From: an uncultured Thermoleophilia bacterium
GTDB lineage: Bacteria > Actinomycetota > Thermoleophilia > UBA2241
Direction: 5' to 3'
Length of the DNA: 64,000 nt
Assembly (NCBI GenBank): GCA_963715985.1
Contig: CAVQSP010000013.1
Location: 611,795-675,794, forward strand
In this document: positions 24,438 to 58,256 of the stretch, one piece after another
Layout: every line of letters starts with the position of its first letter
Position numbering within the stretch: the first letter of the stretch is position 1
The notes under the pieces: model-generated
Database searches by the model: none
What the model was told of the DNA's origin: nothing
The model's input: the letters and a program-made list of their open reading frames with translations, nothing else
Made by a program: the position numbers and the translations under genes

Positions 24438-27400
24438 GTGGGTGACAGAAGTGAGGAAGTAGTCACCTACCTGCCGGCCTTCCTCGTGCACACGGTCGCA
24501 GGGCAGCCGGCGTCCGGTCTCCCGTGGTACGTGGAGGTCGACGGTACGATGGTCATGGCCGACCTCTCCGGCTTCACCGCGCTCTCCGAGCGGCTCGCCC
24601 GTCTGGGCGATGAGGGTGCCGAGCGCCTGACCGACGTCATCAACTCGTTCTTCGAGAAGATGCTCAAGACGGCGTCGCGCTTCGGCGGCGACACCCTCAC
24701 CTTCGGCGGCGACGCCATCCTGCTGCTCTTCGACGGGCCCGAGCACGCCACCCGGGCAGCCGTCGCAGCGCTCGAGATGCTGAAACAGGTCCACCGTGCG
24801 GCCGCGATCGAAGCCGATGACGGCAAGGTCAAGATCGGCATGTCGGTCGGCGCCCACAGCGACAGGTTCGTGCTCGCCGGCGCCGGCCTGGCCGACGAGC
24901 GCGCCCACCTTGTCGTGATCGGCCGCGGCGCCGAGCTGACTGCTCTCGCCGAGGCGCAGGCCGAACGTGGCCAGTTGGCTGTCTCATCCAGCTGCAAGGA
25001 TTTGCTCCCGAACGGGTCGACGGTCGTGCCGACCGGCGACTTCTGGCGCATCGAGGAGTCGGGGGCCCGTGCGCTGCCGCGCCTCGCCTGCGAAGGCACG
25101 TCGATCTCCGACAGGCAACTCCGACAGCTCAGCCCCTTCCTGCCCTCTTACGCCCGCATGACGAAGGGGCGCGGGGAGGAGAGGATGCAGCTCATGCCTG
25201 AGCACAGACGCGCGGTGATTGTCTTCGTCAACATCCTCGGCCTGAACGACGTGATCGCGCGAGACGGCCCCGGTGCTGCCGTCGAGCAGCTGCAAGCCTA
25301 CGCAGCCGTCCTGACCAGGCTGGCGGTGCGGCATCGGGGCTTCGTCGTGAGCAGCGACATCGCCACTAAGGGCTCCAAGCTGATCGTCACCTTCGGTGCG
25401 CCGGTGGCCCACGAGTACGCTCCGGCCAACGCCTGCCGCTTCGCCCTCGACCTGGACGACGAGCTACGACGTTCCGGGCTGGGTCTTGCCCACAGGATCG
25501 GAGTCAACGGCGGGCACGTCTTCGCAGGGGAGGTCGGTCCGTCGTTCCGGCGGCAGTACACGGTGATGGGCGATGCGGTGAATCTGGCGGCCCGGCTGAT
25601 GGGCGCTGCCGAACCGGGAAACGCGCTTGTCAGCCGCACGCTGTTGAACTACGTGAGCTCCGACCTGTGCGCGCGTGAGTTGCCGCCCATCAAGGTGAAG
25701 GGCAAGGAGAAGCCAGTCGCGGTCTGCGTGCTTGAGGCGGAAGAACCGGAAGGTCCCCACATCCACGGCGGCATGGGAAGGACCCCCAGTGAAGGACGCC
25801 TTTTCGGCCGGCGGGCCGAGCTTGACCGGCTGGCGCGGAGTTGGGAGCGGGCGCGCCGCGGCAAGGGACGGGCGGTCCTCATCGCAGGCGATGCAGGCGT
25901 TGGCAAGACACGGTTGCTCGAAGAGGGCCTGCAGGCGATGTCCGCCGGCGACCGGGTGTACCGTGCCGCCTGCTTCGAGCACCTGCAGGCGGTCCCGCTG
26001 GCGCCTTGGGTCGAGCTCCTGCAGCCTATCCTCGGCGTCTCCCGGACCGAACCGACGAGCCAGCGTACGAGCAAAGTGGGCGCGCATCTCGAAGCCCATC
26101 TGCCGGATTTCGTCGAGTTCGGTTCGCTGCTCAATCCCTTGCTGAACGTGACGCTACCGCAGAGTCAGGTCATTGGATCGCTCGACGCGCAAGCGCGGCG
26201 CGAGAAGCTGTTCGAGGTGATTGCGAGTGTCGTAACGGAGGCCGCCGGCGTCCGCGGCCTTGTCATCGGGGTTGAGGACGTGCACTGGATGGACGAGAGC
26301 TCGCTCGCGCTCGCTGCTCACCTCGCGCGCGAGGTCTCGGGGACTCGCGTCCTCTTGCTGCTCACCACACGGCCAACCGACGTTCATGTCGACCTCGGAC
26401 CGGCGGCGACAACGATGGTCCTGGCCGAGCTCTCGGCGCCGGAGTCGCTCGCCATGATGCGCGATGCGTTGCGGGTGGCCGACCTGCCGGCTGAGGTGGG
26501 CGAGGCACTCTACGCCAAGACGAGGGGCAACCCTCTCTTCCTCGAGGAGGTCATCTACTCGCTGCGGGCGCCAGTCGTGCTCGAGCGCATTCTGGGCGCC
26601 TCGTCGGTAGCGCGCGCGGCGGAGCTAGCCGCTCTGGAGATCCCCGACCGGGTGCAGGGCCTGCTCATGTCGCGCATCGATCGGCTGCCGCCCGATACGA
26701 GGGAGGTGCTCAAGGCCGGGTCGGTCGTCGGCCGCTCGTTCGATGATGCCGTGCTGAGCGGGATCGACGACGAGCTGCTGCGCGCCGTTTCCGTGCAGCG
26801 GGCGCTCGACGAGTTGATCGAGGCGGCCCTGGTGGTGTCGGGCGAGGACGGTGACACCAGAGCCGTGAGCTTCCGCCACGCTCTGGTGCAGGACGTCGCC
26901 TACGAGAGCCTGCCGTTTGCCCGCCGCCGTCAGCTGCACGGCCACGTGGCGCGCTACCTTGAAGCCACCCAGACGGTCCCCGACCATGGCCTGCTGGTGC
27001 ACCACTACCGTCACGCGTGCGATGCCGGCAAGACCCGCATTCACGCGGTCCGCGCATCGGAGTCTTCGGTCGCGGTCTACGCGAACCTGGAGGCCATCGA
27101 CTACCTCGCCGTTGCGCTCGACACCGCCACGAGCCGGACGCCGCACGACGCCTGTCTCCGCAGCCGCTCTCGAGGAGCTCATGGGCGACAGCCTCGAGAC
27201 GCTCGCCCGCTACGACGAAGCGGTCGCCAGCTTCTCGCAGGCCCGGCGGCGCTGGGCGTCGCTTGCGGTGCGAGCGGTCGCCGAGTCGGTGCTGTCCGAG
27301 CTGTCGCCCATCGACGAGGCCGACGCCCGCGACAGCCTGCTGTGCTGGAAGATCGCCGTAGCCATGGAACGCGGGCGCGGCGCCTACACTCAGGCCCTCC

Positions 27401-28470
27401 GCTGGCTTGAAAAGGGGGTGGCGGCGCTGCCGCCGGATCACCTGCGTCTGACCGCGCGGCTGCGGATCACGAGAGGCGGCTTTCTCTCCCGACTCGGTCG
27501 CTTCCGGGAAGCCGTCGAAGTCGGGGAAGAGGGTGTCGCGCTGGCTCGGCAGGACGGCGACGCCGCCCTCCAGGCCTACGGCCTGACCTTGCTCGGCGTC
27601 GCCTTCGACGGTCTTGGCAACTTCGACCGCAGCCTCGCCTGCCACGCCGAGGCCGTCAAGCTCTACGAGCAGGCCGGCGACCTTCACGGTCTGGCCATGA
27701 GCCATGGCAACCTGGCGGACAGCTTCTTCTTCCTCGGCGATCTTCGGGCCGCGCTCGAACACGACGAGCTCTCGCTGGCCTTGCACGCGCGCATCGGGAG
27801 CGCCAGCTGGATCGCAAGAGAGCACGCCAACCTCGGCGTGGTGCTCCTCCAGATGGGCGAGGTGGAGGGGGCGCTCGAGCACCTCCAGGAGGCGCTGAGG
27901 CTGCGATCCTGCCAAGGCGTCAATCCAGTGGTCATCGGCATGGCGCTCGTCTTCCTCTGTCAGACTCACCTGTGCTCGGGGGACATCGAGGCGGCGTCGC
28001 GAGAGATCGCCGAGGGACGGCGAGTGCTGGAGGGCATCAATTCCCGCGGCCTCCTGCTCGACGTCGGCATCGCGGAGGCCGAGCTTCATCAGGCGAAGGG
28101 TGAGCTGGAGGAGGCCGCGGAGTCGTGCCGCTGGGTCCTGGCCGAAGCGACGTCGATGGGGGCGGAGCTGAACCAGGTGCAGGCCTTGTGTGCGCTCGGC
28201 CGGGTGCAGATTGCACAGGGCGTTCCGGAGGCCGCGATCACCGGGCTCGAAGCGGGTGTCACGCTGGCCGAGAAGATCGGCGCCGGCTATGAGCGGGCGC
28301 GCACGCTCGCCGCGCTTGCCGAGGCCCGGGCGTCTTGCGGCGGCTCGGGCGAACCTTGCGAGCGCCCGTTGGCCGAGGCGATCCGCTTGTTCGAGGAGAT
28401 GGGTGCGCGCTACGACCTGGACCAGGCTTTGGGCGCGCGCGAGCGCCTCCAAGCGGTGGCTGGAGACTGA
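24438..28470 (+). CDS. Soluble adenylyl cyclase (sAC)-like protein: two class III cyclase domains + STAND NTPase + TPR (apparent frameshift near 27165)
   Basis: C1 MADLSGFT...FGGDA; C2 GVNGG...YTVMGDAVNLAARL; Walker A GDAGVGKT, EDVHWMDESS, GNPLFLEE, FRHALVQDVAY; TPR tail in ORF 26917..28470. Confidence 0.88.
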
Positions 28471-28509
28471 CGATGGAAGACGGAGCATGACGAGGCGGAA
28501 GGGCGCGAC

Positions 28510-30417
28510 ATGACGTCGCCGAGGCGCGTCCAGAAAGCCCTGCTCATCGGCCTGGACTGCGCCGTGCCGGGCCGCTGGCGCAAGTACGCCGAGGCCGGCC
28601 TGCTGCCGGTGGGGCAGCGCCTCCTCGCGGACGGCTGCTTCGTCGCCACGTGCCTGCCGGCGATGCCCACGCTCACCACGACGAACTGGGCGACGATCGC
28701 CACGGGCGCGTGGCCCGGCACCCACGGCATCACCGACTTCAACCCGTACCGGCCCGGCGACGGTGCCGACGACAGCTTGCAGGGCTTCGACGCCCGTGAC
28801 GTGCAGGCCGAGTTCGTCTGGGAGGCGGCGGTCCGCGCCGGGCTGGACAGCATCGTCGTCAACTGGCCGGGGAGCTGGCCGCCGCGCGAGGCGCCGGCCG
28901 GGCTCGCCCGCGGGCGAGGCCGCGGACGGCAGCCGCCCGGCCGGCGAGATCGCGGACGGCGGCCGCCCGGCCGGCGCAGCCACGCCGGGCCGTCTGACTC
29001 TCGTGGGCGGCGCCGGCATCGAGCTGAACGAGTGGCGCATCGGCCTGCCCGGCATGGAGCGGCGCGTGGCGCTCGCCTCCGAACAGCGCTTCTCGACCGC
29101 CGACGAGCCGCGCGCTCATCGGGTGACGCTGCCGCCGAGCGGCGAACCGTTCGAACTGCCGTTGGCGTTGCGCGACGGGTACGACGAGGTGCGCTCCGAC
29201 GTGACCCTGGTCTGCCGCGTCGTCGCGCGAGGCGACCGTCCTGCGGCGCGCTTCTCGCTGGCGGGCGACGACGAGGCGCTCGCCGAGCTCGCCGCAGGCG
29301 AGTGGAGCGAGCGCCTCGAGCTGCCGCTCGCCGTGGACGGCGCCACCGTGACCGGCGTGTTCCGGCTCAAGCTCCTGGAGCTCGACCCTGGGGCCGGTCT
29401 GTTCCGCCTCTACGTCACCGACGTGTGCCGCCAGAATTGGCTGGAGGAGCCGGCCGGCGTGTCTCGGCGACGCGTCCCGCTTCGCCGGCCTGCCGACGCC
29501 CGGCGTCGGCTGGGACTCCCTCGGCTTGGGCTGCATCGACCTCGACACCTTCGTCGAGCTCACGGGCATGGCCACCACCTGGCTGGCCGACGTCTGCGCC
29601 GGCCTCGTCGGCGAGCGCCCCTGGGACCTGTTCTGCGTGCACTTCCATGCCATCGACTCGTTCTACCACCTGTGCTCGGAGAAGCTCGACGAGCGGTTGA
29701 CGCCGGATCCCGAGGAACGCCGGCGCTACGAGGCCGCGGAGGTCGCCGTCTACCGGCAGCTCGACGATGCCGTCGGCCACATCCTGGCCGCAGTGGACGA
29801 GCCCGCACTGACGGTGCTCGTCTCCGATCATGGAGCCGTTCCGTCCGGGCCACCGCTGCCCCTGCGGCGGATCCTTGCGGCCGCGGGTCTGCTGACGGCG
29901 GAGGACCACGGCGGCCGCGACCTCGCCGAGATCGATTGGCGGCACACGCTCGCGGCGCCACAAGGCAGCTGCTTCATCAGGCTGAACCTGGAGGGCCGCG
30001 AGCCGCACGGCATCGTCGCGCCCGACGCGTTTGAGAACGTCCGCCGGCGCGTCATCGAGGCGCTGCTGGCCTATCGCGACCCGGCGACAGCGCAGCTGCC
30101 CGTTCTCTCTCGTCATCCCCAAGGACGAGGCCGTGACCCTGGGCCTGTTCGGAGACGGCGTCGGCGACGTCGTCTACGCCGTCCACCCCGAGTACTGCGA
30201 GGCGCACGGCCAGATGCTGCCCCAGGCCACCAGAGAGCCCGGCGCCTGGGGCATGCCTGCACTCTGCCTGTTCTCCGGCGCCGGGGTGCGGGCCGGGCAC
30301 ATCGTGGAGGCTCCCGCCGCGCTCACAGACGTCGCCCCCACCATCTGTCAGGCACTGGGCATCCCAGCACCATCGAACGCGGACGGGTCACCGCTGCCTC
30401 ACCTTGTCACCGGCTGA
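28510..30417 (+). CDS. Alkaline phosphatase superfamily, type I phosphodiesterase/nucleotide pyrophosphatase (apparent frameshifts near 28910, 29465, 30095)
   Basis: LLIGLDCA, PTLTTTNWATIATGAWPGTHGITDF (Thr nucleophile), D..YH, VSDHG, C-terminal DVAPTICQALG. Confidence 0.82.
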
Positions 30418-30461
30418 CAGCGGAGCTCGAGCCCACTGAAGACGGAGGGCTCGTCGCCCGA

Positions 30462-30929
30462 CTACTCCTTCTGCATGTCGCGCACCATCGCGAGCAGCCC
30501 GCGGGCGAGGCCGATGCCGATGGACGGCTCCTCCTTCACCAGCTTGAGGAAGGCGGTACGCCCGATGCGCGCCGTGGTGAGCACGCCGGTCGCGGTCACG
30601 GTCGCCGCACGCGGCGCGCCGTCGAGGAGCGCCAGCTCGCCGAAGTAGTCGCCTTCGATCAGCTTGCGAGTGTGGCCGGCGGGCGTCTCCACCAGGGCGC
30701 CGCCGTCGAGGATGACGTACATGGCGTCACCGCGCGCCCCGGCACGCACCACTGCGGTGTCCTTCTTGAAGCGCTTCATCTCGGCGAGGCGGCCGACGCG
30801 GCGCAGGTGGCGCTGCGACAGCGCCTGGAAGAGGGGGACGCGCCCCAGTACGGGCAGCCATCCGGGATGCAGTGAATCGGTCGCGCTGTTCACGAAGGCT
30901 TGGATCCCAGAGACACTCCGCGCCTTCAT
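30462..30929 (-). CDS. Stand-alone cyclic nucleotide-binding domain protein
   Basis: VPLFQAL...G..GDAMYVILDG...GDYFGELALLDGAPRAATV; no HTH; AAAGGAG RBS. Confidence 0.88.
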   Translation of the reverse strand: MKARSVSGIQAFVNSATDSLHPGWLPVLGRVPLFQALSQRHLRRVGRLAEMKRFKKDTAVVRAGARGDAMYVILDGGALVETPAGHTRKLIEGDYFGELALLDGAPRAATVTATGVLTTARIGRTAFLKLVKEEPSIGIGLARGLLAMVRDMQKE

Positions 30930-31138
30930 CGAGGCTCCTTTCCCCGAGCGGGCCCCGGCGGACGAGAGGGGGCGACGCGTGGCGACCAACGCGATCCGGC
31001 CACCTGCGTCGCGTCCTTCCTGAGGTGAGGCCCCATCCGCGCTGAGTATATGCCTTGCCGGGGCGCGCGCCGTTGCGTAGCGCCCATCGGGTACGCTGTA
31101 GCGCACTGTGCCCGCGCCGAAGAGGGGAGGCCGGTCGA

Positions 31139-31516
31139 ATGAGCGAGGCGGATGCAGAAGCGGTGCTCGACGGTCACACGCCTGAGGTCTACGGCCTCGC
31201 GCAGTGGCTGCGGCGGGCCGTGAAGTCGGCGGACCGCGACCTGCGCGAGCGCGTCTACAAGGGCTGGCACGGCTTCGGCTACCACCACCCGGACGCCGGC
31301 TACGTGTGCGCCGTCTTTCCGCGCGAAGACGACGTGCTGCTGGCCTTCGAGCACGGCGCCGACCTCGCCGATCCCGAGGGGCGCCTGGCCGCGGGCGGCA
31401 AGCAGGTGCGCTCCCTCGTCTTCACCGAGCGCAGCTCGCACCCGTTCGCGGTCATCCGCGGCTTCGTGAGGGCGGCCGTGGAGGACGGCGTGAGGCGCCG
31501 TCAGTCCGGCCGCTGA
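31139..31516 (+). CDS. DUF1801 domain protein, copy 2
   Basis: 7 differences in 378 nt versus 15457..15834 by manual comparison. Confidence 0.75.
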   Translation: MSEADAEAVLDGHTPEVYGLAQWLRRAVKSADRDLRERVYKGWHGFGYHHPDAGYVCAVFPREDDVLLAFEHGADLADPEGRLAAGGKQVRSLVFTERSSHPFAVIRGFVRAAVEDGVRRRQSGR

Positions 31517-31544
31517 GGCGCCCGCCTGTGCTAGCATCGCGGCC

Positions 31545-31928
31545 ATGAGCGAGGAGCCCACCTTTCTCTTCTCCGGGTACGCGCGGCTGCCGCAGGACGT
31601 GAGTCACCAGGCCATGTACAAGCGCGTGGGCGTGGTGCTGGAGGTCGACGCGGCCGGCGAGGTGGTGGCCTGCAGCACCACGCTGATGATGCCGGTGGCC
31701 TCCGACTTCTTCGGGCGCCTTCTGGTGGGACGCAACGTGCTCTCCGAACGCCGCGAGATCGAGGCTCTCGTCCGCTACCGCTACCGCGGCCACTCCCAGG
31801 GTGCGCTGATCTCGGCGCTCCACAAGGCGTTCGAGGCCGTCGACCAGAGCCCGCTCGTCTCCCCGGAGGCCCACGTCACCTCCGAGGCCGGCCGTGGCAC
31901 AGACTCCGAGACGGAGACGCTCGGCTAG
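31545..31928 (+). CDS. DUF3870-like protein
   Basis: FSGYARLPQ....YKRVGVVLEVD..GEVVACSTTL.....RYRGHSQGALISAL pattern recalled for this family. Confidence 0.7.
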   Translation: MSEEPTFLFSGYARLPQDVSHQAMYKRVGVVLEVDAAGEVVACSTTLMMPVASDFFGRLLVGRNVLSERREIEALVRYRYRGHSQGALISALHKAFEAVDQSPLVSPEAHVTSEAGRGTDSETETLG

Positions 31929-32103
31929 CCGTCTCTCGCCTGCTGCTCGCGTGCCCGGCGCCGTCGCGCTTTCGTCCTCTCCCGACCCTGCTCCGCTCCG
32001 CGTACCCCGTTTCACCCCATGCGGGTGAGGAGCGCGCTCCCCGGCGCCGCATATCGTCCGCGTGAGACCCGTGCTTGAGACCCACGCCACCCGAGGAGGG
32101 ACC

Positions 32104-32406
32104 ATGGCCACCACCGTCCGCGAGCCCGTCCGTGTTGCCGCCGTCGAGGGGCCGCCCGCGCCGGCCCAGAGGATCCGCGTTCCGGCGTGCGCAGACTGTG
32201 CGCACGCGCAGCTCTTCGCGGTGCAGCCCCGCGCCGTGTGCGCACGTGCGGAGGGTGACGGGTCGGGAAGGGCCCTGTTCGCCGGCCAGCCCGCTTGCGC
32301 GGCGATGACGCCGCGCGGCGCCGACGACCTCTCGCTGGCGTGGTGCACGCCGGGCGCCAAGACGATGCACTCACGCTTCCTCACCGTTCCGCCGCGCATG
32401 ATCTGA
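32104..32406 (+). CDS. Small Cys-rich hypothetical protein
   Basis: GAGGAGG RBS; CADC..C..C..C. Confidence 0.55.
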   Translation: MATTVREPVRVAAVEGPPAPAQRIRVPACADCAHAQLFAVQPRAVCARAEGDGSGRALFAGQPACAAMTPRGADDLSLAWCTPGAKTMHSRFLTVPPRMI

Positions 32407-32598
32407 CGCGGCGGTCGCGGTCCCGGCCGATCTCCCCGGGGCCGAGCGGCGTGCCGTCCCCCCGGGACGCCGGGTGCCGTCGCCGGCGGCCGTGACCATC
32501 ACGGCCGCCGGCCTGCGGCACGTACTGTCACCAGACGGTGACATCCTCCCCTCGCGGACGTAGACTCCTGCTACCGGGGGTCGTTGGAGGGGAGCGAG

Positions 32599-34812: not shown

Positions 34813-34836
34813 CGGCGCGGGCCTGAGGCCCGCCCG

Positions 34837-46700: not shown

Positions 46701-47188
46701 CCGCGACGCCCGTGCGGTACGGCCTCGGCGACGCCGGCGCCGCTCTCGGCCTTCTGGCCCAGTGGGAGGCCCGGCCGCGGCCCGGAAGCGGGCCCAACTA
46801 CGTGGCCTACCTGCCCGAGGCGGTGCGCACGGCGCTGGCCGCCGGCGACGACGTGCTGGCCGGGCGGCTCGCGAGCGGTGTCGAGAGCATCCTGCCGATG
46901 CAGCGCAACGTCCTCGCGTCGTTGCAGAGCCTGGTGAGCGAGCGGGCGGGAGCACCGGAAGCGGCGGCGGCCGGCTTCGCCGACGCCGCCGCCCGCTGGT
47001 ACGACTTCGGCGTGCCCTACGAAGAGGGGCACGCCCTCTTCGGGCAGGGGCGCTGCCTGGTGGCGCTCGGCAGAGCGCCGGAGGCGGCAGCGCCCCTGGC
47101 CGCGGCCCGCGAGATCTTCGCGCGGCTCGGGGCCAGGCCGGCGCTGGCGGAGACGGACGCGGCCCTGCGGCGCGTCGCATCCGCCTGA
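43708..47188 (+). CDS. Zn-ribbon / class III cyclase / STAND ATPase / TPR protein #3 (apparent frameshifts near 43810, 44345, 45555, 46005)
   Basis: CPACH..FCMTCG, LFCDLVGFT, GDAINTAARL, GDPGIGKS, EDLHWAD; pieces in successive ORFs; GTGA overlap with #2. Confidence 0.85.
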
Positions 47189-47269
47189 CCGCCGCGACCT
47201 CGTAGCATGCTGAGCGCAACGTGGGCCGGCGGGTACGCAAGCGTCCGTTTCGGCCCCGCCGAGCCATGC

Positions 47270-47328: not shown

Positions 47329-47336
47329 GTGACGAC

Positions 47337-48566: not shown

Positions 48567-48585
48567 GCGAGGGATGGGAACCGCG

Positions 48586-51500
48586 ATGAGTGTGTGTGCC
48601 GCGTGCGGCGCCGAGAACCCGGCGCGGGCCAAGTTCTGTAACGAGTGCGGCGCCCAGCTGGCCGCCCCGCACGCCGCGGCGGATGAGCGCAAGATGGTGA
48701 CCACCCTCTTCTGCGACCTCGTCGGCTTCACGGCGATGAGCGAGGCCGCCGACCCCGAGGACGTCGACGCCCTGCTGCGCGAGTACTCGGCCCGGGCGCG
48801 TCGCGTCATCGAGTCGCACGGCGGCACCGTGGAGAAGTTCATCGGCGATGCCGTCGTCGGCGTCTTCGGCGTGCCCGCCGTGCACGAGGACGACCCGGAG
48901 CGCGCCGTGCGCGCAGCCCTGCGCCTGATCGAGGCGCTCGAAGGCATGGCGCGGCCCGACGGCAGCCCGCTCGAGGCGCGCTGCGGCGTCAACACCGGCG
49001 AGGCCCTGGTCCGCCTCGACGTCGCCCCCGGGAGCGGCGACGGCTTCCTCACCGGCGACGCCGTGAACACGGCGGCGCGGCTTCAGGCAGCCGGCCCACC
49101 CGGCGGCGTCGCCGTCGGCGCGCTGACCCACCAGCTCACGCATCGCGCCATCGTCTACCAGGATCTGCCGCCGGTCGCGGCCAAGGGCAAGGCCGAGCCG
49201 GTTCCCGCCTGGCTCGCCACCGCGCCCATGGCCCGCATGGGCGCCGATGCCGAGCGTCGGCAGCTCACTCCCCTGGTCGGTCGCGCGGCCGAGACCGCCG
49301 CGCTTCGCGCCCTTGTCGACAGCGTCATCGCGGCCCGATCATCGCGATCCGTCCTCATCGTCGGCGAGCCCGGCATCGGCAAGACCCGCCTCGTCCAGGA
49401 GCTCTTCGCCCACGTCGACGCCCTGCCCGAGATGGTCACCTGGCGACAGGGCCGCTGCCCGTCGTACGGCGAGAGCATCGCGTTCTGGGCGCTCGCCGAG
49501 ATCGTCAAGGCCCATGCCGGCATCCTCGACGGGGATGACGGTGCCGCCGCAGCCGACAAGATCTCGGCCGCCGTCCTCGACGGTCCCGATCACACCTGGA
49601 TGGTGAACCGCCTGCGGGCTCTCGTGGGTCTCGAGGCACCCCCGGCCGAGAGGGAGGAGAACTTCACGGCCTGGCTGCGCTTCTTCGAGCAGGTGGCCAA
49701 CGACGAGCCGTTCGTACTGGTGGTCGAGGACCTGCACTGGGCCGACGACGGCCTGCTCGCCTTCGTCGAGCATCTCGCGCGCCATGCCGGGGCCGCGCCG
49801 CTCCTCCTACTCGGCACGGCACGTCCCGAGCTGCTCGAGACCAATCCGACGCTCGGTGCAAACGGCGGCGGGTTGACCCGCATGTCGCTGGGCCCGCTCA
49901 CCTCGGCGGAGACGGAGCAGCTGGTGGCAGACGTGCTGGGTGATGGCGAGGCCGAGAGCCGGCAGATCGCCGACATCGTCGCGCGCTGTGCCGGCAACCC
50001 GTTCTTCGCGGAGGAGTCGGCGCGCCTGCTCGCCGACCAGCGGCCCGGGGAGCCAGTGCCTGCCTCCGTCCAAGCCGTGATCGCCGCCCGCCTTGACGCG
50101 CTGCCCGGCGAGGAGAAGACGGCCTTGGCTGATGCCGCCGTCGTCGGGGAGGTCTTCTGGGACGGCGCGCTCACGGAGCTGGGCCGGCGCGAGCGCGTCG
50201 AGGTGGATGCCGCGCTGGGCGCTCTCCACGACAAGCACCTGGTGAGACGGGCGCGCGAGTCCTCAATGGCCGGCGAGAGCGAGTTCACGTTCACGCACGC
50301 CCTGACGCGCGACGTGGCCTACGGCACGCTGCCGCGCCGGGCCCGCGCGCAGAAGCACGCGCAGACGGCCGCCTGGCTGGAAGGCCGGGCGGGCGGCCGC
50401 CTCGAGGATGTGGCCGACCTCCTCGCCCATCACAGCGCCACGGCCTTCGAGCTCGCCGAGGCCGTCGGCGACGGCGAGCTGGCCCAGCGTTGCCGCAAAC
50501 CGGCCGTCACGGCCCTCCGGCTCGCCGGCGATCGTGCCGTGCGGCTCGATGTCGAGGCGGCGGAGAGACTCCTCGCCCGGGCGGCGGGTATCTGCTCTGA
50601 CGAGGACCCGCAACGGCCCGCACTCTATGAGGAGTGGGGCAGGTCGCTGCTCCTGCGCAGTCGCTACGAAGATGCCAGAGTCGCTCTCGAGGAATCGACT
50701 CGCGGCTTCCTTGCGAGCGGACGAAGACCAGAGGCGGCGATGGCCATGATCTCGCTGGAGGTGGCGCAGTTCTTTCTGGGCGGACGGGACTGGCGCGCGG
50801 TCCTCGACGAGGCGATGCTGCTGACCGACGATGAGCCCTGTGGCCAGACTCGGGCCCACGTCCTGACCGCCATCGCCAGCGGCCGGATCGTGCTGGGCGA
50901 CTACACCGGCGGGCTCGACTGGATCAAGCGCGCCGTCGATATCTACGGCCGCTGCGGGCTGGAGGTTCCCCTTCGTCTCCAGGGGTGGCAAGCGCAGGCG
51001 GAATGCGGGCTCGGCGACCGCGGTGCGGGCGACAGGTTGCTTTCGGTGGCGCGTGCGATGAGGGAGGAGGGGCTGGGTCGTGACGCGATGGTCGCCTACT
51101 CCAACTACGGGATCTCGATGTACCCCATCGAAGGCCCTCGCGCCTACGACAGCGCGCAGGAAGGTCTCGACTTCTTGCGCGGTCGCGGCATCTCCGAGGA
51201 GGGGATCCTGGCCATGAACCGTTGCTCTGGCCTCGTATCCGCCGGGCGCTGGGACGAGGCCCGGCGCAGCATGGAGGAGTCTCGCCCCTGGCTGCAGCAG
51301 CAGGACAATCAGCTGGCGTTCTGCTTCTGGTGGGTGAATCGTGCCGAGCTCCTGACACTCACAGGAGAGGGACGGGAGGCGGTCGAATGCGCCCGCGAGG
51401 CGGACGAGCGCGCGCAGCAGTGGGACGACGTGATACGTGTCCATGGTCGTGCGACCCTCGTCACGGCGCTGGCGTGCGCTGGCGACCGGAGGCGAGCGAT

Positions 51501-51933
51501 CGAGCTACTGGCCGGGATCGCGAGTGTCCCGCACCCGAGGGGGTTCCAGGGCTACGAGGAGCTGATCCCCCAGCTGATGCGACTCGCTCTGCATTGCCGG
51601 GAGGCCGCACTGGCCGAACAGCTGATCGCGGGCATCGAGCCCGATGTGCCTCTGCTCGAGCACGTGTTGGTGACGGGACAAACCCTACTGGCGGAGGCGC
51701 GCGGTGAGCACGAAGCCGCGGCGGCCGGCTTCGCCGACGCCGCCGCCCGCTGGCACGAGTTCGGCGTGCCCTACGAAGAGGGGCACGCCCTCCTCGGGCA
51801 GGGGCGCTGCCTGGCGGCGCTCGGCAGAGCGCCGGAGGCGGCAGCGCCTCTCGCCGCGGCCCGCGAGATCTTCGCGCGGCTCGGGGCCAAGCCGGCGCTG
51901 GCGGAGGCGGACGAGTGGCTGACGCACACGTGA
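48586..51933 (+). CDS. Zn-ribbon / class III cyclase / STAND ATPase / TPR protein #4
   Basis: CAACG..FCNECG, LFCDLVGFT, GDAVNTAARL, GEPGIGKT, EDLHWAD, GNPFFAEE; alternative start 48574. Confidence 0.92.
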   Translation: MSVCAACGAENPARAKFCNECGAQLAAPHAAADERKMVTTLFCDLVGFTAMSEAADPEDVDALLREYSARARRVIESHGGTVEKFIGDAVVGVFGVPAVHEDDPERAVRAALRLIEALEGMARPDGSPLEARCGVNTGEALVRLDVAPGSGDGFLTGDAVNTAARLQAAGPPGGVAVGALTHQLTHRAIVYQDLPPVAAKGKAEPVPAWLATAPMARMGADAERRQLTPLVGRAAETAALRALVDSVIAARSSRSVLIVGEPGIGKTRLVQELFAHVDALPEMVTWRQGRCPSYGESIAFWALAEIVKAHAGILDGDDGAAAADKISAAVLDGPDHTWMVNRLRALVGLEAPPAEREENFTAWLRFFEQVANDEPFVLVVEDLHWADDGLLAFVEHLARHAGAAPLLLLGTARPELLETNPTLGANGGGLTRMSLGPLTSAETEQLVADVLGDGEAESRQIADIVARCAGNPFFAEESARLLADQRPGEPVPASVQAVIAARLDALPGEEKTALADAAVVGEVFWDGALTELGRRERVEVDAALGALHDKHLVRRARESSMAGESEFTFTHALTRDVAYGTLPRRARAQKHAQTAAWLEGRAGGRLEDVADLLAHHSATAFELAEAVGDGELAQRCRKPAVTALRLAGDRAVRLDVEAAERLLARAAGICSDEDPQRPALYEEWGRSLLLRSRYEDARVALEESTRGFLASGRRPEAAMAMISLEVAQFFLGGRDWRAVLDEAMLLTDDEPCGQTRAHVLTAIASGRIVLGDYTGGLDWIKRAVDIYGRCGLEVPLRLQGWQAQAECGLGDRGAGDRLLSVARAMREEGLGRDAMVAYSNYGISMYPIEGPRAYDSAQEGLDFLRGRGISEEGILAMNRCSGLVSAGRWDEARRSMEESRPWLQQQDNQLAFCFWWVNRAELLTLTGEGREAVECAREADERAQQWDDVIRVHGRATLVTALACAGDRRRAIELLAGIASVPHPRGFQGYEELIPQLMRLALHCREAALAEQLIAGIEPDVPLLEHVLVTGQTLLAEARGEHEAAAAGFADAAARWHEFGVPYEEGHALLGQGRCLAALGRAPEAAAPLAAAREIFARLGAKPALAEADEWLTHT

Positions 51934-52086
51934 CGACGGACCCGCCTTGTCTTCGGCGATGATGGTAGTAGCGTGTGACTCAACGCACGGCTCCGGAGGG
52001 GGGACCACAATGAATGCACGCGTGGTGGCGAGACCCGTTGAGCCCGTCTCCCGTCTCGTCGCGACTGCTGCAAGAGGGAGGAACTC

Positions 52087-53076
52087 ATGACCCCGCCAAG
52101 CGCTGCCGACCAGGCCGACTCGACCTGGCATCCTGCATCCCCATGGTCCGGCTGGGCCGAGTGGCTCGCCGGCGTCCCGCTCTTCGCCGGTCTGTCTCGC
52201 GGCCATCTGAAGCGCGTCGCCCGGCTGGCCCACCTGAGGTCGTACGCGGATGGCAAGACGCTGACGAGCGCCGGGTCTCGCGGCGACGCCTTCTTCGTCA
52301 TCCTCGAGGGCAGCGCTCATCTGGAGACGCCCGCCGGCCACACGCGCGAGCTGAAGGCCGGCGACTCGTTCGGCGAGCTCGCGCTCATCGACGGCGCCCC
52401 GCGCGCGGCCACCATCGTGGCCGTGGGCGACGTGAGCGTGGCCCGCATCGAGCGCGCGGCGTTTCTGGAGCTCATGCGCGAGGAGCCACCGATCGCGATC
52501 GGGCTCGCCCGGGGCGTGGTCGCGATCATCCGTGACCTGGAGGCGGACGCCGTGCCGGCGACGGTCGCGGGCGGTGCGGACGCCGCGGCAGCCGGGGCGG
52601 CGGATCCTCTGGAGCAGCTGACTCAGGCCAGCGGCGATCGCGCGTCGCGCAAGGCCGCAGCCGGCCTGGCGGAGGCGCTCTTGGCCGGCGTGCCCATGTT
52701 CGCTGAGCTGCCTCAGCGGCGCCTGCACAAGGTCGCCGCGGTAGCGGCGGTGAAGCGCTACCCGGCGGGCGACGTCGTCGCCCGCGCCGGCGCCCGCGGC
52801 GCCGTGTTCCACGTCATCGCTTCAGGCCGTGCAAAGGCCGTCACCCCGGACGGCCGCGAGAACGTGATGGAGCCGGGAGGATTCTTTGGCGAGCTCTCGT
52901 TGCTCGACGGCGCGCCGCGTGCGGCCACGGTGAGTGCCCTCGACGAGCTCGTGACGGTGTGCATCTCTCGCAGCGATCTCACGAAGCTGCTCAAAGAGGA
53001 ACCCAACATCGCCGTCGGCCTGTTGCGCGGCCTTGTCGCCTTGGTCAGGGACGTGGAGGCGCAAGCAGCGAGCTGA
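52087..53076 (+). CDS. Tandem cyclic nucleotide-binding domain protein
   Basis: Two CNBDs: FGELALIDGAPRAAT and FGELSLLDGAPRAAT; GGAGG RBS. Confidence 0.9.
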   Translation: MTPPSAADQADSTWHPASPWSGWAEWLAGVPLFAGLSRGHLKRVARLAHLRSYADGKTLTSAGSRGDAFFVILEGSAHLETPAGHTRELKAGDSFGELALIDGAPRAATIVAVGDVSVARIERAAFLELMREEPPIAIGLARGVVAIIRDLEADAVPATVAGGADAAAAGAADPLEQLTQASGDRASRKAAAGLAEALLAGVPMFAELPQRRLHKVAAVAAVKRYPAGDVVARAGARGAVFHVIASGRAKAVTPDGRENVMEPGGFFGELSLLDGAPRAATVSALDELVTVCISRSDLTKLLKEEPNIAVGLLRGLVALVRDVEAQAAS

Positions 53077-53144
53077 CAGCGGTGCGCGGGTCCGCGAAGA
53101 GACCGACCTGCCTCTCGCCGGGACGACTCGCTGTCCGTTTCCTA

Positions 53145-53201
53145 TCAGAAGAACCGTTACTTTTGAAACAGTTGATTTCAGAAGACCCTTGACTTTTGAA
53201 A
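53145..53201 (+). promoter_or_regulatory. AT-rich 24-bp direct repeat (33-bp period), each copy an imperfect palindrome; putative operator
   Basis: TCAGAAGAACCGTTACTTTTGAAA and TCAGAAGACCCTTGACTTTTGAAA (21/24 identical). Confidence 0.65.
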
Positions 53202-53223
53202 GCAACGGCCCGAGAGTGGCTGT

Positions 53224-54543
53224 ATGCGACGTGCTCTCACGGACAGATTGGTCGAGTGGAAGGACGCCCGGCGCCGTCAGCCTCTGCTGCTACGGGGCGC
53301 GCGGCAGGTCGGCAAGACCTGGGCGGTCACCGACTTCGCCACACGGCACATGCCCGGCCGGCTCCACGTCGTCGACTTCGAGCGTGATGTCGAAGTTCGC
53401 AGGTTCTTCGAGGGCGATCTCGACATCGATCGCATCCTCGGCGCCCTGGAGGTCACTCTGGGCCGCACCATCGAGGCCGGCCGGGACCTCTTGTTCCTCG
53501 ACGAGATCCAGGCGTGTCCGCGGGCCCTGGTCGCGCTGCGCTACTTCTTCGAGCAGCTCCCTGAGCTCCATGTCGTCGCTGCCGGCTCGCTCATCGAGTT
53601 CGCACTGAGCTCCGTCTCGTTCCCCGTAGGTCGGGTGCAGATGCTGAACCTGCATCCCTTGAGCCTGCGCGAGTTCCTGTGGGCTGTGGGCAACGATCCG
53701 GCTGCCGACGCGGTGAGCGCCGCGCCCCGCGATCTGGGTCCGGCTCTGCACGAAACGCTTCTCGGTATCCTCCGCGACTACCTGTTCGTCGGCGGCATGC
53801 CGGCCGCCGTGGCTGCGTTTGCGGAGACCGGCCGCATCTCCGAGGCCAGGATCGTCCACAACGCCCTGCTGGATGCCTACCGGGCCGACTTCGGCAAGTA
53901 CTCCCCACGCGTGGATCCCGCCTGCCTGGACGAGGTGCTGACCAGCGTGGGACGCTCCGTGGGCAGGCAGATCACCTACACCTCTCTCGCTGAAGGCTAC
54001 ACGCACCCCACCATCAGGACCGCGTTCGACGCGCTTCGCAGGGCGCGGATCGTCCACAAGATCTCAGCCGCTCGTCTCGTCGGCACGCCCCTGGGGGCGG
54101 CCGTCTCCGCACGGACGCGCAAGGCCATTCTGGTCGACCTCGGTCTCATGCACGCGCTCACCGACATGTCGGTGGATGCCGCCCTGCTGCGGCACGATCT
54201 GCTCGATGTGTACAACGGCGCTCTCGCCGAGCAGTTCGTCGGCCAGGAGCTTCTGGCGGCGACTGATCGTGACCTCTTCTACTGGTCGCGCTCGGCGAAG
54301 GGCAGCACCGCGGAGGTCGACTACCTGGTCACGCCGGGGGGCTCTGTCCGCGCGGTGGAGGTCAAGAGCGGACCCGCCGGCAGGCTGAAGAGCATGCATC
54401 TGCTGCTCGCCGAGCACCCGGAGGTCGCCCCCGGCTACGTGCTCTCCACGGCACGGTACGCCGAGCTTCCGGAGCAGGGACTGGTGTTCGCGCCGCTCTA
54501 CTTCGCGGCGGCGGTGGCCCGGGGCGTTCCGGCGGCCGGGTAG
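53224..54543 (+). CDS. AAA_14 ATPase with DUF4143 domain (second subfamily)
   Basis: GARQVGKT, FLDEIQ, AAGSL, FPVGRV, GGMPA, YWSR....AEVDYL...VEVKSG. Confidence 0.9.
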   Translation: MRRALTDRLVEWKDARRRQPLLLRGARQVGKTWAVTDFATRHMPGRLHVVDFERDVEVRRFFEGDLDIDRILGALEVTLGRTIEAGRDLLFLDEIQACPRALVALRYFFEQLPELHVVAAGSLIEFALSSVSFPVGRVQMLNLHPLSLREFLWAVGNDPAADAVSAAPRDLGPALHETLLGILRDYLFVGGMPAAVAAFAETGRISEARIVHNALLDAYRADFGKYSPRVDPACLDEVLTSVGRSVGRQITYTSLAEGYTHPTIRTAFDALRRARIVHKISAARLVGTPLGAAVSARTRKAILVDLGLMHALTDMSVDAALLRHDLLDVYNGALAEQFVGQELLAATDRDLFYWSRSAKGSTAEVDYLVTPGGSVRAVEVKSGPAGRLKSMHLLLAEHPEVAPGYVLSTARYAELPEQGLVFAPLYFAAAVARGVPAAG

Positions 54544-54557
54544 GCGCCCGCGCCGCT

Positions 54558-56485
54558 TCACGTCCCGAGTGACTGCGGCGGCCGCCATTCGGCCGCCGCC
54601 AGCCGTTCGCGAGCGGTGCGCTCGACGAGGTCGAGCGCCTCGGGCGAGCGGCGCAGCACCTCGCCGAGCTGCTGCGGCGTGAGCATCAGCACCGTGCCCG
54701 GCTCTTCGGCGAGCACCTCGGCGTTGCGCACGGCACCGTAGCCGGCGCCCCAGTCCAGCGCCGCCAGCTCGCCGACGAAGTCGCCGGCCCGAAGGATGTT
54801 CAGCGGGCGCCCGGAGCTGCGCACGCTGAAGCTCCCCTCGAGGATCACGAAGACGTCGCGGCTCGCGTCCCACTGCTCGATGAGCAGCTCGCCCGGCTCG
54901 ACGCGGCGCTCCTCGGCGCGACCGACGAGGTCGGCGACGTCGTCTCCGTCAGCGCCGCGAAGAGCGGCACCCAACGCAGGTCGGCGGCGGCAGTGCTCGG
55001 GCTCGTGGCCCAGCCGCCCACGAGGTCCGGCTCGCGACGCACGGGAGCCGGCGCGGCGTCGCCCAGGTCGAGCGCCTCGAGCGGCGTCTGCTCCAGGATG
55101 TCGAGCACGCGGTGCACGTGCGACGCAGTGGTCGTCGGGTTGAGGACGCACATGCGGATGGCGGTGCGGCCGAAGAGCCGCGTCGAGGAGACGAGCGCCT
55201 CTCCGGTCTGCTCCACGGCGGCGACCAGCGCCAGGTTGATCGCGTCCAGGCGGCGCTCGTCGGTCTCGCCGGGCGGCCGCCGTCGCAGCGCCACCACGCT
55301 CAGGTCCACCGGCGCCAGCAGTTCCAGTTCGTCGCTGGCCTGCACGCGCGCCGCCGCCTCCTGCGCCAGGTCCAGCGCGCCGTCCACGGCGGCGCGGAAC
55401 GCGTCCAGGCCAAACGTCTGGATGGACATCCACACCTTCAGGGAGCGGCAGAAGCGTGTGAGCTGCAACCCCCGGTCGGAGAAGTTGACCTCCTCCTGGG
55501 CGGAGATGTCGCGCAGGTAGTCGGGGGTGATCTCGAAGGCGCGGCGCAGGCCCTCCGGCTCGCGCACCAGGATGGCGCCGCACTCGAAGGGCTGGAAGAG
55601 CCACTTGTGGGGGTCGAGCGTGATGGAGTCGGCGCGGCCGATGCCGCGAAGCGTCTCGCGGCCGCGCTCCGTGAGCGCCGCGAAGGCGCCGTAGGCGCCG
55701 TCCACGTGCAGCCAGACGTTGTGCGCGGCGCAGGCGTCGGCGAGCTGGTCCAGCGGATCCACGGCGCCGGTGTTGGTGGCGCCGGCGTTGGCACACACGG
55801 CCAACGGCAGCCTTCCGGCGGCGCGGTCCGCCGCGATGGCCTGTTCGAGGACGTCCACGCGCAGGCGATGGCTGCGGTCCACCGGGAGCACGCGCACCTG
55901 CCCGGGGCGGAAGCCGAGAGCTCTGGCGGCCCGCGCGATGGAGGAGTGACTCTGCGACGACACGTACACCACGAGGTCGTCGCGCATCGCGCCGACGAGC
56001 CGCTCGCGCGCGCAGGCCAGCGCCGTCATGTTGGCGGCCGAGCCGCCGCTGACGAGGATGCCGGAGGCCGTCTCAGGGTAGCCCAGCCACTCGGCGAACC
56101 AGCGCAGCACCGTGAGCTCCAGCTGGCTGCCGCCGGCGCCGCCGACCCACCAGCACGCATCGAGCATAAGGGCGCTGGCGATGAGGTCGCCCATGGCGCT
56201 CGGCCAGGTGGGGAAGCCGGGGATGAAGGCCATGTAGCCGCCGGCGCCGACGTGTGCGCTGTAGGGCACGACGTCGGCGAAGACCTGCGCGAGCACGTCG
56301 TCGTACGGCCGCCCAGCTGCGGGCGGCGGCCCGTCCAAGCGAGCTCTCAATTCGGGCGCGGACACGCGCCGCAGCACGGGCTGGCTCTCGATGGAAGCGA
56401 TGGCGTCGACGAGCGCGTCCACGGTGCGGTGCCCGATGGCGCGCATCTCGTCCGGGTCGAACTGCAGCGGTCCCCCGTCAGGCAT
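54558..56485 (-). CDS. PLP-dependent group II (aromatic amino acid/glutamate-type) decarboxylase fused to C-terminal cNMP-binding domain (apparent frameshift near 54945)
   Basis: SGGSAAN, HSSIARA, GATNTGAVD, WLHVDGAYG, DPHKWL (PLP Lys); then WVPLFAAL / GDFVGELAAL...RNAEV. Confidence 0.85.
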
Positions 56486-56600
56486 GTCCCGACTTTATCG
56501 GGCGTGAGCGTGGGAGTCCACGCATCGCGTGACCCTCAAGACCTCGTCCTCCGCCATCCTTCAAAGTAGAGTAGTGGTGCATCCGGACCGGGAGGGCCGA

Positions 56601-58256
56601 GTGGGGGCAGAGAGCGAAGGTCGCCTGAAGGCCACACTCGGTGTGTTCGGCACGGCGTTCCGCAATCGCTCCCTGATGCTCGTCGAGCTGGCGTGGCTGG
56701 CCTTCAACAGCGCCGAGTGGGGGGTCTGGCTCGCCCTCATGGTCTGGGCCTACACGCGCGGGGGCGCCGCTGCGGCCAGTCTCATCGTCATCGTCCAGCT
56801 GGTCCCCGCCATCTTCATCGCCCCGTACCTCGGCGCGATCACCGACCGGGCGCGCGCCGGCCGGGTGCTCTTCATCGGTCTCCTCATCATGGGCGGGACG
56901 ATGGCGGCGGTGGCCGCGGCGATCGCCCTGGACGCGCCGGGCTTCGTGGTCTACATCCTCGCGCCCATCATGAACCTGGCGCTCTCCGTGCCCAGGCCGG
57001 CACAGGCGGCGCTGCTGCCCGGCGTGGTGCGCACGCCGCTGGAGCTGACCGCCGCCAACGTCGTCTCCAGCTGGGTGGAGAACGCCAGCGTGCTGCTTGC
57101 GCCGGCCTTGACCGGCGTCCTGCTCGGCGTGGGCGGGCCGGCGCTGGCCGCCGGGGTGCTAGCCGGCTGCACCTTGGCCGGCGCCGCGATGGTGGTCGGC
57201 ATCCCCGGGCCGAAGCCGATGACCGAGCGCGGGGAGGGTGTGTCGCTCACGGCCGAGGTCAAGCAGAGCGTGGCCGCGGTCTGGCGCGTGCCGGCGGCGC
57301 GCACGCTGGTCGGCGTGGTCGGCTCGCAGTACATCCTCGTCGGCGCCCTCGACGTGCTCTACGTCGTGCTCGCGATCACCACTCTGGGCATGGGCGAGTC
57401 GGGCGCCGGGTACCTGAACGCGGCGTTCGGCGCCGGCGGGGTCATCGGGGTCGCGCTCACGACCGCGTTCGTGGCTCGCCGCCGTCTGGCGCCGGCGCTC
57501 ATCGGCGGCATCGTCACGGCGGCGTTCGCGTTGGGCGTGCTCGGCGTCTTCCCCACGGTGGTCGGCGCGTTCGCGCTGCTCGGTCTGGCCGGTCTGAGCC
57601 GCTCCGTGTTCGACGTCACCGGACGCATCCTGCTGCAGCGCGCCGCCCCGCCGCAGGTGCTGGGCCAGGTGTTCGCCCTGCTCGAGTCGCTGATGAACGC
57701 CGGCCTTGCCGTGGGCGCCATCTTTGTGCCGGCCCTGGTCGGGCTGAGCGGCGCGTCCGCCGCTCTCATCGGCACCGCGCTGCTGCTGCTCGTCATCGTG
57801 GCCGTCGTCTGGCGGCGCCTGCGGTCCATCGACGACGCGGCGGACGTGCCCCAGGTCCAGATCCAGCTGCTGCGCCTGAACCCCATCTTCGCGCCGCTCC
57901 CCGCCCCCGAGCTCGAGGGCCTCGCCCGCGCGCTCGTCCCGGTGAAGGTGGCAGCCGGCACCACCGTCATCCGTGAGGGCGACGAGGGCGACCGGTTCTA
58001 CGCGATCGCCGACGGCGAGATGCGGGTGACAAAGAAGGGCGTAGACGTTGCGACCCTGCGCCGCGGCAGCGGCTTCGGCGAGATCGCGCTCATCGAGGAC
58101 GTGCCACGCACCGCCACTGTGGTCGCCGTCACGGATGCACAGCTGTTCTCTCTGGAGAAGGAGCCGTTCTTCCTGGCGCTGACCGGTCACGCCCCCGCGG
58201 CGCACGCTGCGAGCGACCTGGTCACGCAACGGCTCGGCGAGCTGGAGGCGCTGTAA
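56601..58256 (+). CDS. MFS transporter fused to C-terminal cNMP-binding domain
   Basis: About 12 hydrophobic segments, G.ITDR motif; C-terminal IREGDEGDRFYAI...GFGEIALIEDVPRTATV; GGAGG RBS. Confidence 0.9.
   Translation: MGAESEGRLKATLGVFGTAFRNRSLMLVELAWLAFNSAEWGVWLALMVWAYTRGGAAAASLIVIVQLVPAIFIAPYLGAITDRARAGRVLFIGLLIMGGTMAAVAAAIALDAPGFVVYILAPIMNLALSVPRPAQAALLPGVVRTPLELTAANVVSSWVENASVLLAPALTGVLLGVGGPALAAGVLAGCTLAGAAMVVGIPGPKPMTERGEGVSLTAEVKQSVAAVWRVPAARTLVGVVGSQYILVGALDVLYVVLAITTLGMGESGAGYLNAAFGAGGVIGVALTTAFVARRRLAPALIGGIVTAAFALGVLGVFPTVVGAFALLGLAGLSRSVFDVTGRILLQRAAPPQVLGQVFALLESLMNAGLAVGAIFVPALVGLSGASAALIGTALLLLVIVAVVWRRLRSIDDAADVPQVQIQLLRLNPIFAPLPAPELEGLARALVPVKVAAGTTVIREGDEGDRFYAIADGEMRVTKKGVDVATLRRGSGFGEIALIEDVPRTATVVAVTDAQLFSLEKEPFFLALTGHAPAAHAASDLVTQRLGELEAL

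Follow-up and report, generated by a model that had tools for sequence, protein, structure and literature searches.

Proteins in which a class III nucleotide cyclase is joined to a STAND ATPase and a TPR sensor are known, and Leipe et al. in 2004 reportedly described SWACOS-type STAND proteins with an adenylyl cyclase, a label which by its definition presumably also covers the cyclase-STANDs treated here. The SWACOS name is used in PMC8195603, PMC13581612 and PMC13236601. We analysed a stretch of 64,000 nucleotides from an uncultured Thermoleophilia bacterium (the window; G000:C13:611795-675794, source bin of 4.35 Mb, 88.8% complete, 7.29% contamination), in which positions 24438-58256 (the island) hold five such cyclase genes together with proteins carrying cyclic nucleotide-binding domains (CNBDs). 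All the domains, as well as the cyclase-STAND-TPR architecture and the one resembling soluble adenylyl cyclase (sAC), have been described before; with moderate confidence, we regard their assembly here as a genus-level, expandable cyclic-mononucleotide (cNMP) signalling locus with non-lethal outputs.

With SWACOS-type proteins and the archaeal structure 6MFV the island cyclases share class III cyclase, STAND and TPR, but they form an actinobacterial subfamily with a hydrophobic base-specifying residue, tandem arrays with apparently gene-converted ends and linked CNBD enzymes. Full-length ADCY10 has a predicted STAND domain, according to PMC12802110. The protein encoded from position 24438 has in common with ADCY10 two cyclase domains, the Asp pair in C1 and Thr/Asn/Arg in C2, followed by STAND, whereas a Ser at the Lys334 site, a bacterial TPR tail and a tie to a giant C25/FG-GAP protein set it apart. 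Pycsar and Pucsar likewise combine a class III cyclase with CNBD-bearing readers. The analogy to Pycsar drawn in the first-pass annotation fails on the effectors: the island has neither a CNBD-TIR nor a 3TM (pJV1-spdB3) effector and no two-gene operon, its PycTIR matches cover the CNBD only, and its cyclases carry their own sensors. PycC profiles match only the cyclase domain of the island proteins, at 62 bits or less, the PDB ranks CyaC, CyaB and sAC first, and these are not stand-alone cyclases as in the PycC clade. The effector-STAND-TPR layout with a variable sensor is common to Avs/AVAST proteins (PMC13581612), but the N-terminus in the island is a zinc ribbon with a cyclase, a second-messenger enzyme, and not a killing effector. 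A PADLOC scan of the island gave full matches to the candidate system PDC-S01 for both AAA_14 genes, but PycC and PycTIR matches at domain level only and no Avs profile match, and around the cyclase-STANDs of the genus no defence-island context was found. The TOMM kinase/cyclase family TIGR03903, with the cNMP-binding TIGR03896, has the cyclase-STAND core in common with the island proteins (212-235 bits), and in both cases cNMP-binding proteins are encoded nearby, but the island cyclases score under its cut-off of 705 and have no kinase domain, and the window contains no TOMM cluster. The mycobacterial Pat acetyltransferase (NCBIfam NF058543) is a cAMP-regulated CNBD-enzyme fusion. By analogy, a CNBD fused to an enzyme may act as an allosteric switch in the island too, although the enzyme there is a group II pyridoxal phosphate (PLP) decarboxylase with a C-terminal CNBD, a five-residue pocket insertion and an invariant Trp. 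A search of the open literature, outside which most subscription papers and some clade tables lie, found nothing on a CNBD-fused decarboxylase, a cyclase-linked MFS-CNBD transporter or the island locus, and no study of the ligands or outputs of cyclase-STAND-TPR proteins.

The window represents the fullest state of an expandable (accordion) site of the genus and not one fixed operon. We surveyed 16 relatives, most of them picked for carrying a marker gene, for the stretch between CoA-transferase/DUF3870 and acyl-CoA dehydrogenase; three further genomes gave no match to the site flanks. The site between CoA-transferase/DUF3870 and the acyl-CoA dehydrogenase-FixC-ETF (electron transfer flavoprotein) genes draws shuffled gene sets from a common pool: it is empty in three relatives (G002, G022 and G230), where DUF3870 forms its left edge, holds a cyclase gene in 12, one of them truncated, and in G178 contains MFS-CNBD, an NPP-type phosphodiesterase and a MalT-like gene without a cyclase. 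Each relative examined has its own gene order and content. Two modules recur, in varied order. Module A comprises a small Cys-rich open reading frame (ORF), a MalT-like regulator and a resident cyclase-STAND-TPR; module B, found again in G012, G013, G050 and G227, comprises the giant C25/FG-GAP protein, the sAC-like cyclase, CNBD readers and NPP. The window combines both with a tandem cyclase array. The features are as follows.

15399-15849: left-hand one of two 450-bp direct repeats that bracket module B; its partner at 31080-31531, in the DUF1801 region, is 95% identical
16462-24356, plus strand: giant, probably secreted protein in several frames, upstream of the island
24438-28470, plus strand: sAC-like protein with two class III cyclase domains, STAND and TPR; frameshift near 27190
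28510-30417, plus strand: NPP/AlkP-family phosphodiesterase; three frameshifts
30462-30929, minus strand: single, stand-alone CNBD
31080-31928, plus strand: right repeat copy with DUF1801, then DUF3870
32062-32406, plus strand: small Cys-rich ORF
32584-34812, plus strand: MalT-type STAND-TPR-LuxR regulator, scoring under the NCBIfam MalT cut-off
34908-36726, minus strand: family-5 solute-binding protein (SBP5); one frameshift near 35115
36885-40313, plus strand: zinc ribbon-cyclase-STAND-TPR, array copy 1, intact
40310-43711, plus strand: zinc ribbon-cyclase-STAND-TPR, array copy 2, intact, its start overlapping the preceding stop
43708-47188, plus strand: cyclase-STAND-TPR of the resident type; four frameshifts
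47337-48566, plus strand: AAA_14-DUF4143 ATPase, PADLOC candidate PDC-S01
48574-51933, plus strand: zinc ribbon-cyclase-STAND-TPR, intact; structure modelled (pLDDT 87)
52087-53076, plus strand: tandem, stand-alone CNBD
53224-54543, plus strand: AAA_14-DUF4143 ATPase, PADLOC candidate PDC-S01
54558-56485, minus strand: group II PLP decarboxylase with C-terminal CNBD; frameshift near 54945
56595-58256, plus strand: MFS transporter (DHA3/MFS_3-like, about 11-12 hydrophobic segments) with C-terminal CNBD

Pfam searches of 47 window ORFs recovered each gene that the first-pass annotation had named; together with searches of the source genome they account for one NPP/AlkP gene, five CNBDs in four proteins, two AAA_14/DUF4143 genes and a MalT-type STAND-LuxR gene. 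Its five class III cyclase-STAND-TPR genes are likewise all present, but the first is a two-cyclase, sAC-like gene that differs from the other four. The span also contains SBP5, DUF1801, DUF3870 and the small Cys-rich ORF, which were missing from that list. By own-genome search the island carries five of the nine cyclase-STAND genes of the genome, a count inflated by tandem duplication, and, within 0.8% of the genome, five of its 13 CNBD matches, more than chance would give (naive binomial 3e-8). The remaining eight are a tandem CNBD, four CBS-DUF294 nucleotidyltransferase-like proteins, a ferredoxin-type protein and a DUF1638 protein; neither a CRP-type regulator nor a TIR protein was among the 13, the bin being incomplete. 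Related DNA occurs in wetland and soil metagenomes, where 20 of the 23 runs listed hold 21-38% of the words.

The earlier description of a single co-organised 34-kb system did not hold, given the varying order and content, the G178 readers without a cyclase, and the lack of a nearby cyclase at most reader loci outside the genus. What did hold is that cyclases, readers and NPP travel together within the genus. Of the 16 MFS-CNBD loci examined, 11 have a cyclase-STAND no more than 10 kb away, in one case detected by its 3' cap only (four of the five negative loci had less than 9 kb of sequence, and one further locus was left out), as do four of seven decarboxylase-CNBD loci, the three negatives being contigs shorter than 9 kb. 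The decarboxylase fusion is present in 7 and NPP in 9 of 54 genomes; at each of its nine loci in relatives, NPP has a cyclase or CNBD gene for a neighbour, and MFS-CNBD is followed directly by NPP at six loci. Among 300 genomes of the class, NPP occurs only in the family of the window genome, and in the sister genus one of three copies has a CNBD neighbour.

Outside the genus, we inspected 20-kb windows at 31 MFS-CNBD loci (every one of the 27 in genomes with 20 contigs or fewer, and four of 11 others) and 40 control windows from the same contigs. Related genomes in this set are not independent observations, and two pairs of windows abut. A class III cyclase was found near MFS-CNBD in 10/31 versus 5/40 controls (p 0.042), a cyclase with STAND in 6/31 versus 1/40 (p 0.024) and a further CNBD in 9/31 versus 1/40 (p 0.002). 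Nine decarboxylase-CNBD loci from other orders and phyla, a sample among the matches listed, were accompanied by MFS-CNBD in five cases versus none of 70 plain decarboxylases, by cyclase-STAND in one versus 1/70, by arginase/agmatinase-family genes in three and by class III aminotransferases in two; enzymes of amine and polyamine metabolism are common in these neighbourhoods. Thus decarboxylase-CNBD and MFS-CNBD form a robust pair, and the link with cyclase-STANDs, strong within the genus, is modest outside it. The single decarboxylase locus with a cyclase-STAND, L037:4534-12458 in a metagenome-assembled genome of Actinomycetes, another class, is a compact run of cyclase-STAND-TPR, MFS-CNBD, decarboxylase-CNBD and CNBD and the best minimal system of this type. 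Another AlkP phosphodiesterase lies 7 kb from this run.

The single-cyclase genes encode zinc ribbon-cyclase-STAND-TPR proteins of 1,120-1,160 residues, and stop-to-start overlaps join the first three of the array. In the model of the 48574 gene product a cyclase, a STAND and a long helical-repeat sensor are seen, and its best Foldseek match is the archaeal STAND-TPR 6mfv (E 5e-13). Pfam assigns the island STAND domains to AAA_16, not to NACHT or NB-ARC, and Walker A and B are intact in the STAND fused to the N-terminal class III cyclase. The catalytic and cNMP-binding residues of cyclases and readers proved intact, in support of the first reading, in alignments of 98 single-cyclase homologues and of the five island CNBDs. 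All 98 homologues keep the two metal Asp, the Lys, the Asn, the Arg and the Lys of Walker A, and because these residues are invariant, the activity of the single cyclases appears to be under selection. The Lys of the base-specifying pair, present in 98/98, points to ATP; the most likely, although not certain, product is cAMP. The best PDB sequence match of the 24438 gene is human ADCY10 (E 3.5e-26), and its C1 and C2 motifs are present in all five genus copies. Routine annotation names the family 'class 3 adenylate cyclase/TPR protein'.

The TPR sensors are, as first proposed, the variable part of these proteins. Among the 98 homologues mean pairwise identity is 70% in the cyclase, 56% in STAND, 39, 36 and 31% in successive TPR segments and 72% in the last 70 residues (the cap). 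The TPR segments correlate with each other (rho 0.55-0.70) but with neither the cap (-0.09 to 0.04) nor the cyclase, while cap and cyclase identities correlate with each other (0.38), correlations that may be biased since the rows were chosen by similarity to one sensor. For the sensor half of the 48574 gene, the best match among 8000 candidates scored was 70%. The four window caps are 94-97% identical in DNA, and fourfold sites are identical among the window paralogues at 217/241 positions (90%) in the caps, 115/173 in the cyclase core and 56/122 near Walker B. Since identity in the caps is far above that in the other two regions, the caps appear synonymously homogenised, either by gene conversion or by recombination by way of the 3' end. 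The 43708 gene is of the resident type, whose orthologue adjoins the MalT-like gene in eight relatives. Hypervariable alleles at this gene were ruled out, as in seven intact copies from seven species the TPR is as conserved as the cyclase (68% versus 67% identity, pN/pS 0.41), which argues for purifying selection on the resident sensor. Cyclase-STAND matches number 0-15 per genome among relatives. Because most sensors are diverse but the resident one is conserved, the family probably constitutes a set of sensor types that evolves by birth and death, and for at least one of these types the ligand is probably stable.

In all five island CNBDs the phosphate-binding cassette still has its Gly-Glu and its Arg. 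The PLP decarboxylase-CNBD fusion reported by the first-pass annotation is intact in relatives, being one ORF in G021, but in the assembled window copy the two domains lie in different frames. Both Pfam domains are present in about 95 of the 101 clusters matched, and the alignment keeps the PLP Lys in 54/54, the catalytic-loop Tyr in 52/54 and the CNBD Glu, Arg and inserted Trp in 54/54 sequences. As the fold is nearest to Ruminococcus gnavus tryptophan decarboxylase (4obv, TM-score 0.90), an aromatic amine is the likeliest predicted product. In G021 a CBS-DUF294-type CNBD protein stands tail to tail with this gene. The NPP matches ENPP1 weakly, its Asp, Thr nucleophile, Asp-His, Asp-His and His metal ligands are present in the intact G019 orthologue, and it is synteny that suggests a role in degrading cNMP.

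STAND proteins switch by oligomerisation and class III cyclases need a dimer for activity. In the proposed mechanism, which follows this STAND and class III chemistry, a ligand would bind the TPR sensor and release the STAND switch, oligomerisation would bring single cyclase domains into the required dimer, and these would make a 3',5'-cNMP, most likely cAMP. The cNMP would control allosterically, as the CNBD fusions suggest, the aromatic-amino-acid-type decarboxylase and the MFS exporter, with regulated amine synthesis and export as the output; CNBDs without an effector could buffer or relay the signal, and NPP could reset it. Duplication and recombination between conserved gene ends would diversify the sensors. 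With a diffusible cNMP, any cyclase of the cell could act on a given reader, and this may account for the loose linkage outside the genus. If this is true, the decarboxylase family (about 95 clusters) and the MFS transporter would, as cNMP-gated proteins, be new kinds of allosteric cNMP effector, and NPP an unusual cNMP eraser. The island names candidate outputs for signalling by cyclase-STAND-TPR proteins. These are common among the Actinomycetota of soils and wetlands, with up to 13-15 matches per genome in the set analysed, and have a counterpart in human soluble adenylyl cyclase in its full-length form.

Several points weigh against this reading, beginning with the marker-based choice of relatives in the site survey. 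In the 98 single cyclases the second base-specifying site, which is Thr in CyaC and CyaB, is Phe in 86, Leu in 7 and Ile in 3, so that the usual Thr/Ser/Asp is replaced by a hydrophobic residue in 96/98; in the 24438 gene and its G012 copy, pairwise alignment places Ser at the site of human Lys334. The product and even the activity are, on account of these replacements, only predicted. To our knowledge NPP-type enzymes are not typical 3',5'-cNMP phosphodiesterases, and neither a cyclase nor a CNBD lies closer than about 5 kb to two of the three NPP orthologues in the sister genus. Outside the genus, no nearby class III cyclase was detected at 21/31 MFS-CNBD and 8/9 decarboxylase-CNBD loci, and the linkage statistics rest on kin, which are not independent. 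The enrichment of CNBD fusions near cyclases anticipated by the first reading was found in the genus and, modestly, beyond, but a coordinate test of MFS-CNBD versus cyclase-STAND only gave 4/40 within 10 kb against 1.96 expected (P 0.13), and 3/40 against 0.8 within 3 kb; because that test missed double and non-STAND cyclases, linkage was re-tested with the 20-kb windows. Finally, the diversity of the sensors would fit an arms race as well.

A rather unlikely alternative is that a recombination hotspot collects mobile signalling genes whose parts act separately off a global cNMP pool, co-location reflecting shared ancestry or homology. The unconserved gene order, the weak linkage outside the genus, the 450-bp direct repeat around module B and unrelated passengers such as SBP5, which was not seen at the equivalent site in relatives, fit such a hotspot, as do the 22 of 24 class genomes with MFS-CNBD that carry 1-13 cyclase-STAND matches scattered genome-wide. 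However, the adjacency is repeated at different chromosomal sites (G015:C3, G021:C7, G019:C133 and C146, G043:C2 and G121:C43) and in another class (L037), NPP is restricted to cyclase/CNBD contexts in the genus (9/9), and the direct order MFS-CNBD then NPP recurs at its six loci.

The first-pass annotation had left the choice between immunity and environmental sensing, and here sensing is favoured over immunity, the neighbours being metabolic and signalling genes. That the array is an NLR repertoire recognising invader proteins of phages or mobile elements, with cNMP driving growth-slowing, membrane-permeability or neighbour-warning effectors, seems unlikely to us. The layout is Avs-like, the sensors (30-39% identical versus 70% for cyclase and cap) are decoupled from gene ends whose caps look gene-converted, and the arrays suggest birth and death, with 0-15 matches per genome. 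Two PDC-S01 candidate defence ATPases sit inside the array and also adjoin cyclases in G019, G043 and G054. But no TIR, nuclease, SIR2 or 3TM effector is found among the CNBD proteins of the genome, the resident sensor is conserved, the outputs are metabolic, and the site lies in the chromosome between housekeeping genes with no integrase seen. In the 146 ORFs that lie up to 7 kb from cyclase-STANDs of the genus, a raw number not set against control ORFs, there was one full-length candidate defence match (PDC-S43), the six other PADLOC matches being partial and to generic domains, and the named neighbours (91 of the 146 ORFs scanned) are metabolic, transport, resistance and ribosomally synthesised and post-translationally modified peptide genes. 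The Pucsar preprint (bioRxiv 10.64898/2026.08.12.744502) predicts, without testing, an immune clade ('immune clade 1') to which some STAND-fused cyclases are assigned; the fusions that it names are to NACHT and AP-ATPase, and the island calls are AAA_16. PMC13581612 describes defence and non-defence STAND clades as interspersed. The island array bears on the question, left open in the 2026 preprint, of whether STAND-fused cyclases are immune receptors. A more speculative reading, which we consider quite unlikely, is an NLR repertoire that exchanges sensor cassettes between gene-converted cyclase and cap ends and whose many sensors all act through one cNMP on amine synthesis and export as a secreted alarm, with an NPP-type eraser and neither killing nor CRP; the nucleotide would perhaps not be cAMP, because the base-specifying site is hydrophobic.

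Returning to the expandable signalling locus, its extent depends on the assembly. Ten breaks affect five genes (one each in decarboxylase-CNBD, double cyclase and SBP5, three in NPP and four in the 43708-47188 gene), which gives 0.30/kb (10 in 33.8 kb); outside the island, 44 matched stretches of 53.7 kb contain 21 frame switches, two of them artefacts of two-gene queries. As this density equals the background, dnaG of the source genome is likewise split and the orthologues are intact, the island frameshifts are likely assembly errors, although the four in the 43708 gene could be real. In contigs of four runs, no single piece of which spans the island stretch, the NPP break at 29462 is missing in two runs, the SBP5 break at 35114 in one, and the letters inserted at 27197 in the double cyclase add up to three. 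That the island owes part of its size to the joining of haplotypes of several strains with different modules in a long-read bin is very improbable. The 7.29% contamination speaks for it, together with contig C18, which repeats the acyl-CoA dehydrogenase-FixC-ETF flank at about 95%, and with module B, which lies left of DUF3870 and between direct repeats in the window versus right of it in relatives. On the other hand, both modules are at the site in G013 and G050 as well, tandem arrays of three genes occur in G050 and of two in G043 and G001, and the stop-start overlaps of the window array are clean. The 450-bp repeats might stem from an insertion by single crossover or from the joining of two strains. 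The duplicated flank (window 59009 onward, at about 95% on G000:C18, L112), which has another cyclase-STAND 3 kb downstream, may reflect strain heterogeneity or a paralogous copy. A tRNA-Asn was rejected as the integration site, its 3' 16 bases occurring once in the window and the variable site lying 4-20 kb distant.

The giant protein at 16462-24356 has a hydrophobic N-terminus, Ig-like domains, a C25 (gingipain-like) peptidase domain with a His/Cys motif and FG-GAP repeats, and its gene lies upstream of the double cyclase in all four relatives that have it at the site. The C25 domain was supported by an Atlas score of 0.96 with 27/30 matches, and Pfam at E 1 missed it. The window copy contains about ten short Arg-containing hexapeptide repeats at 19113-19319; a motif search in five relatives found none. 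The small Cys-rich ORF, for which the ESM Atlas gave hypothetical clusters only (0.89-0.90) and no family, is kept upstream of the MalT-like gene, follows decarboxylase-CNBD in G054, G121 and G019 and precedes a cyclase in G043. Outside the genus, S8 peptidases are found near MFS-CNBD at L140, L141 and L146, and at L142:7822-8586 (G174) a calcineurin-like phosphoesterase, a possible alternative eraser, directly follows MFS-CNBD. Genes for ribosomally synthesised and post-translationally modified peptides adjoin genus cyclase-STANDs at two places, one encoding a TIGR03975 radical SAM methyltransferase (L116:16109-17995) and the other, which has CNBD matches after it, a daptide-like HExxH protease (L123:7627-9387), and a rifampin ADP-ribosyltransferase (arr) lies a few kb from a cyclase-STAND at L011:17570-18142 (G015) and L112:9814-10716 (G000:C18). 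In several relatives rpoD is directly followed by another, rpoD-like sigma gene (about 68%), which is missing from the window (rpoD at 9736-10857). Furthermore, a second cNMP locus of the source genome, L109:8500-13200 (G000:C13, about 409-413 kb), has a tandem CNBD between two LipJ-like alpha/beta-hydrolase-cyclases and is syntenic in G017.

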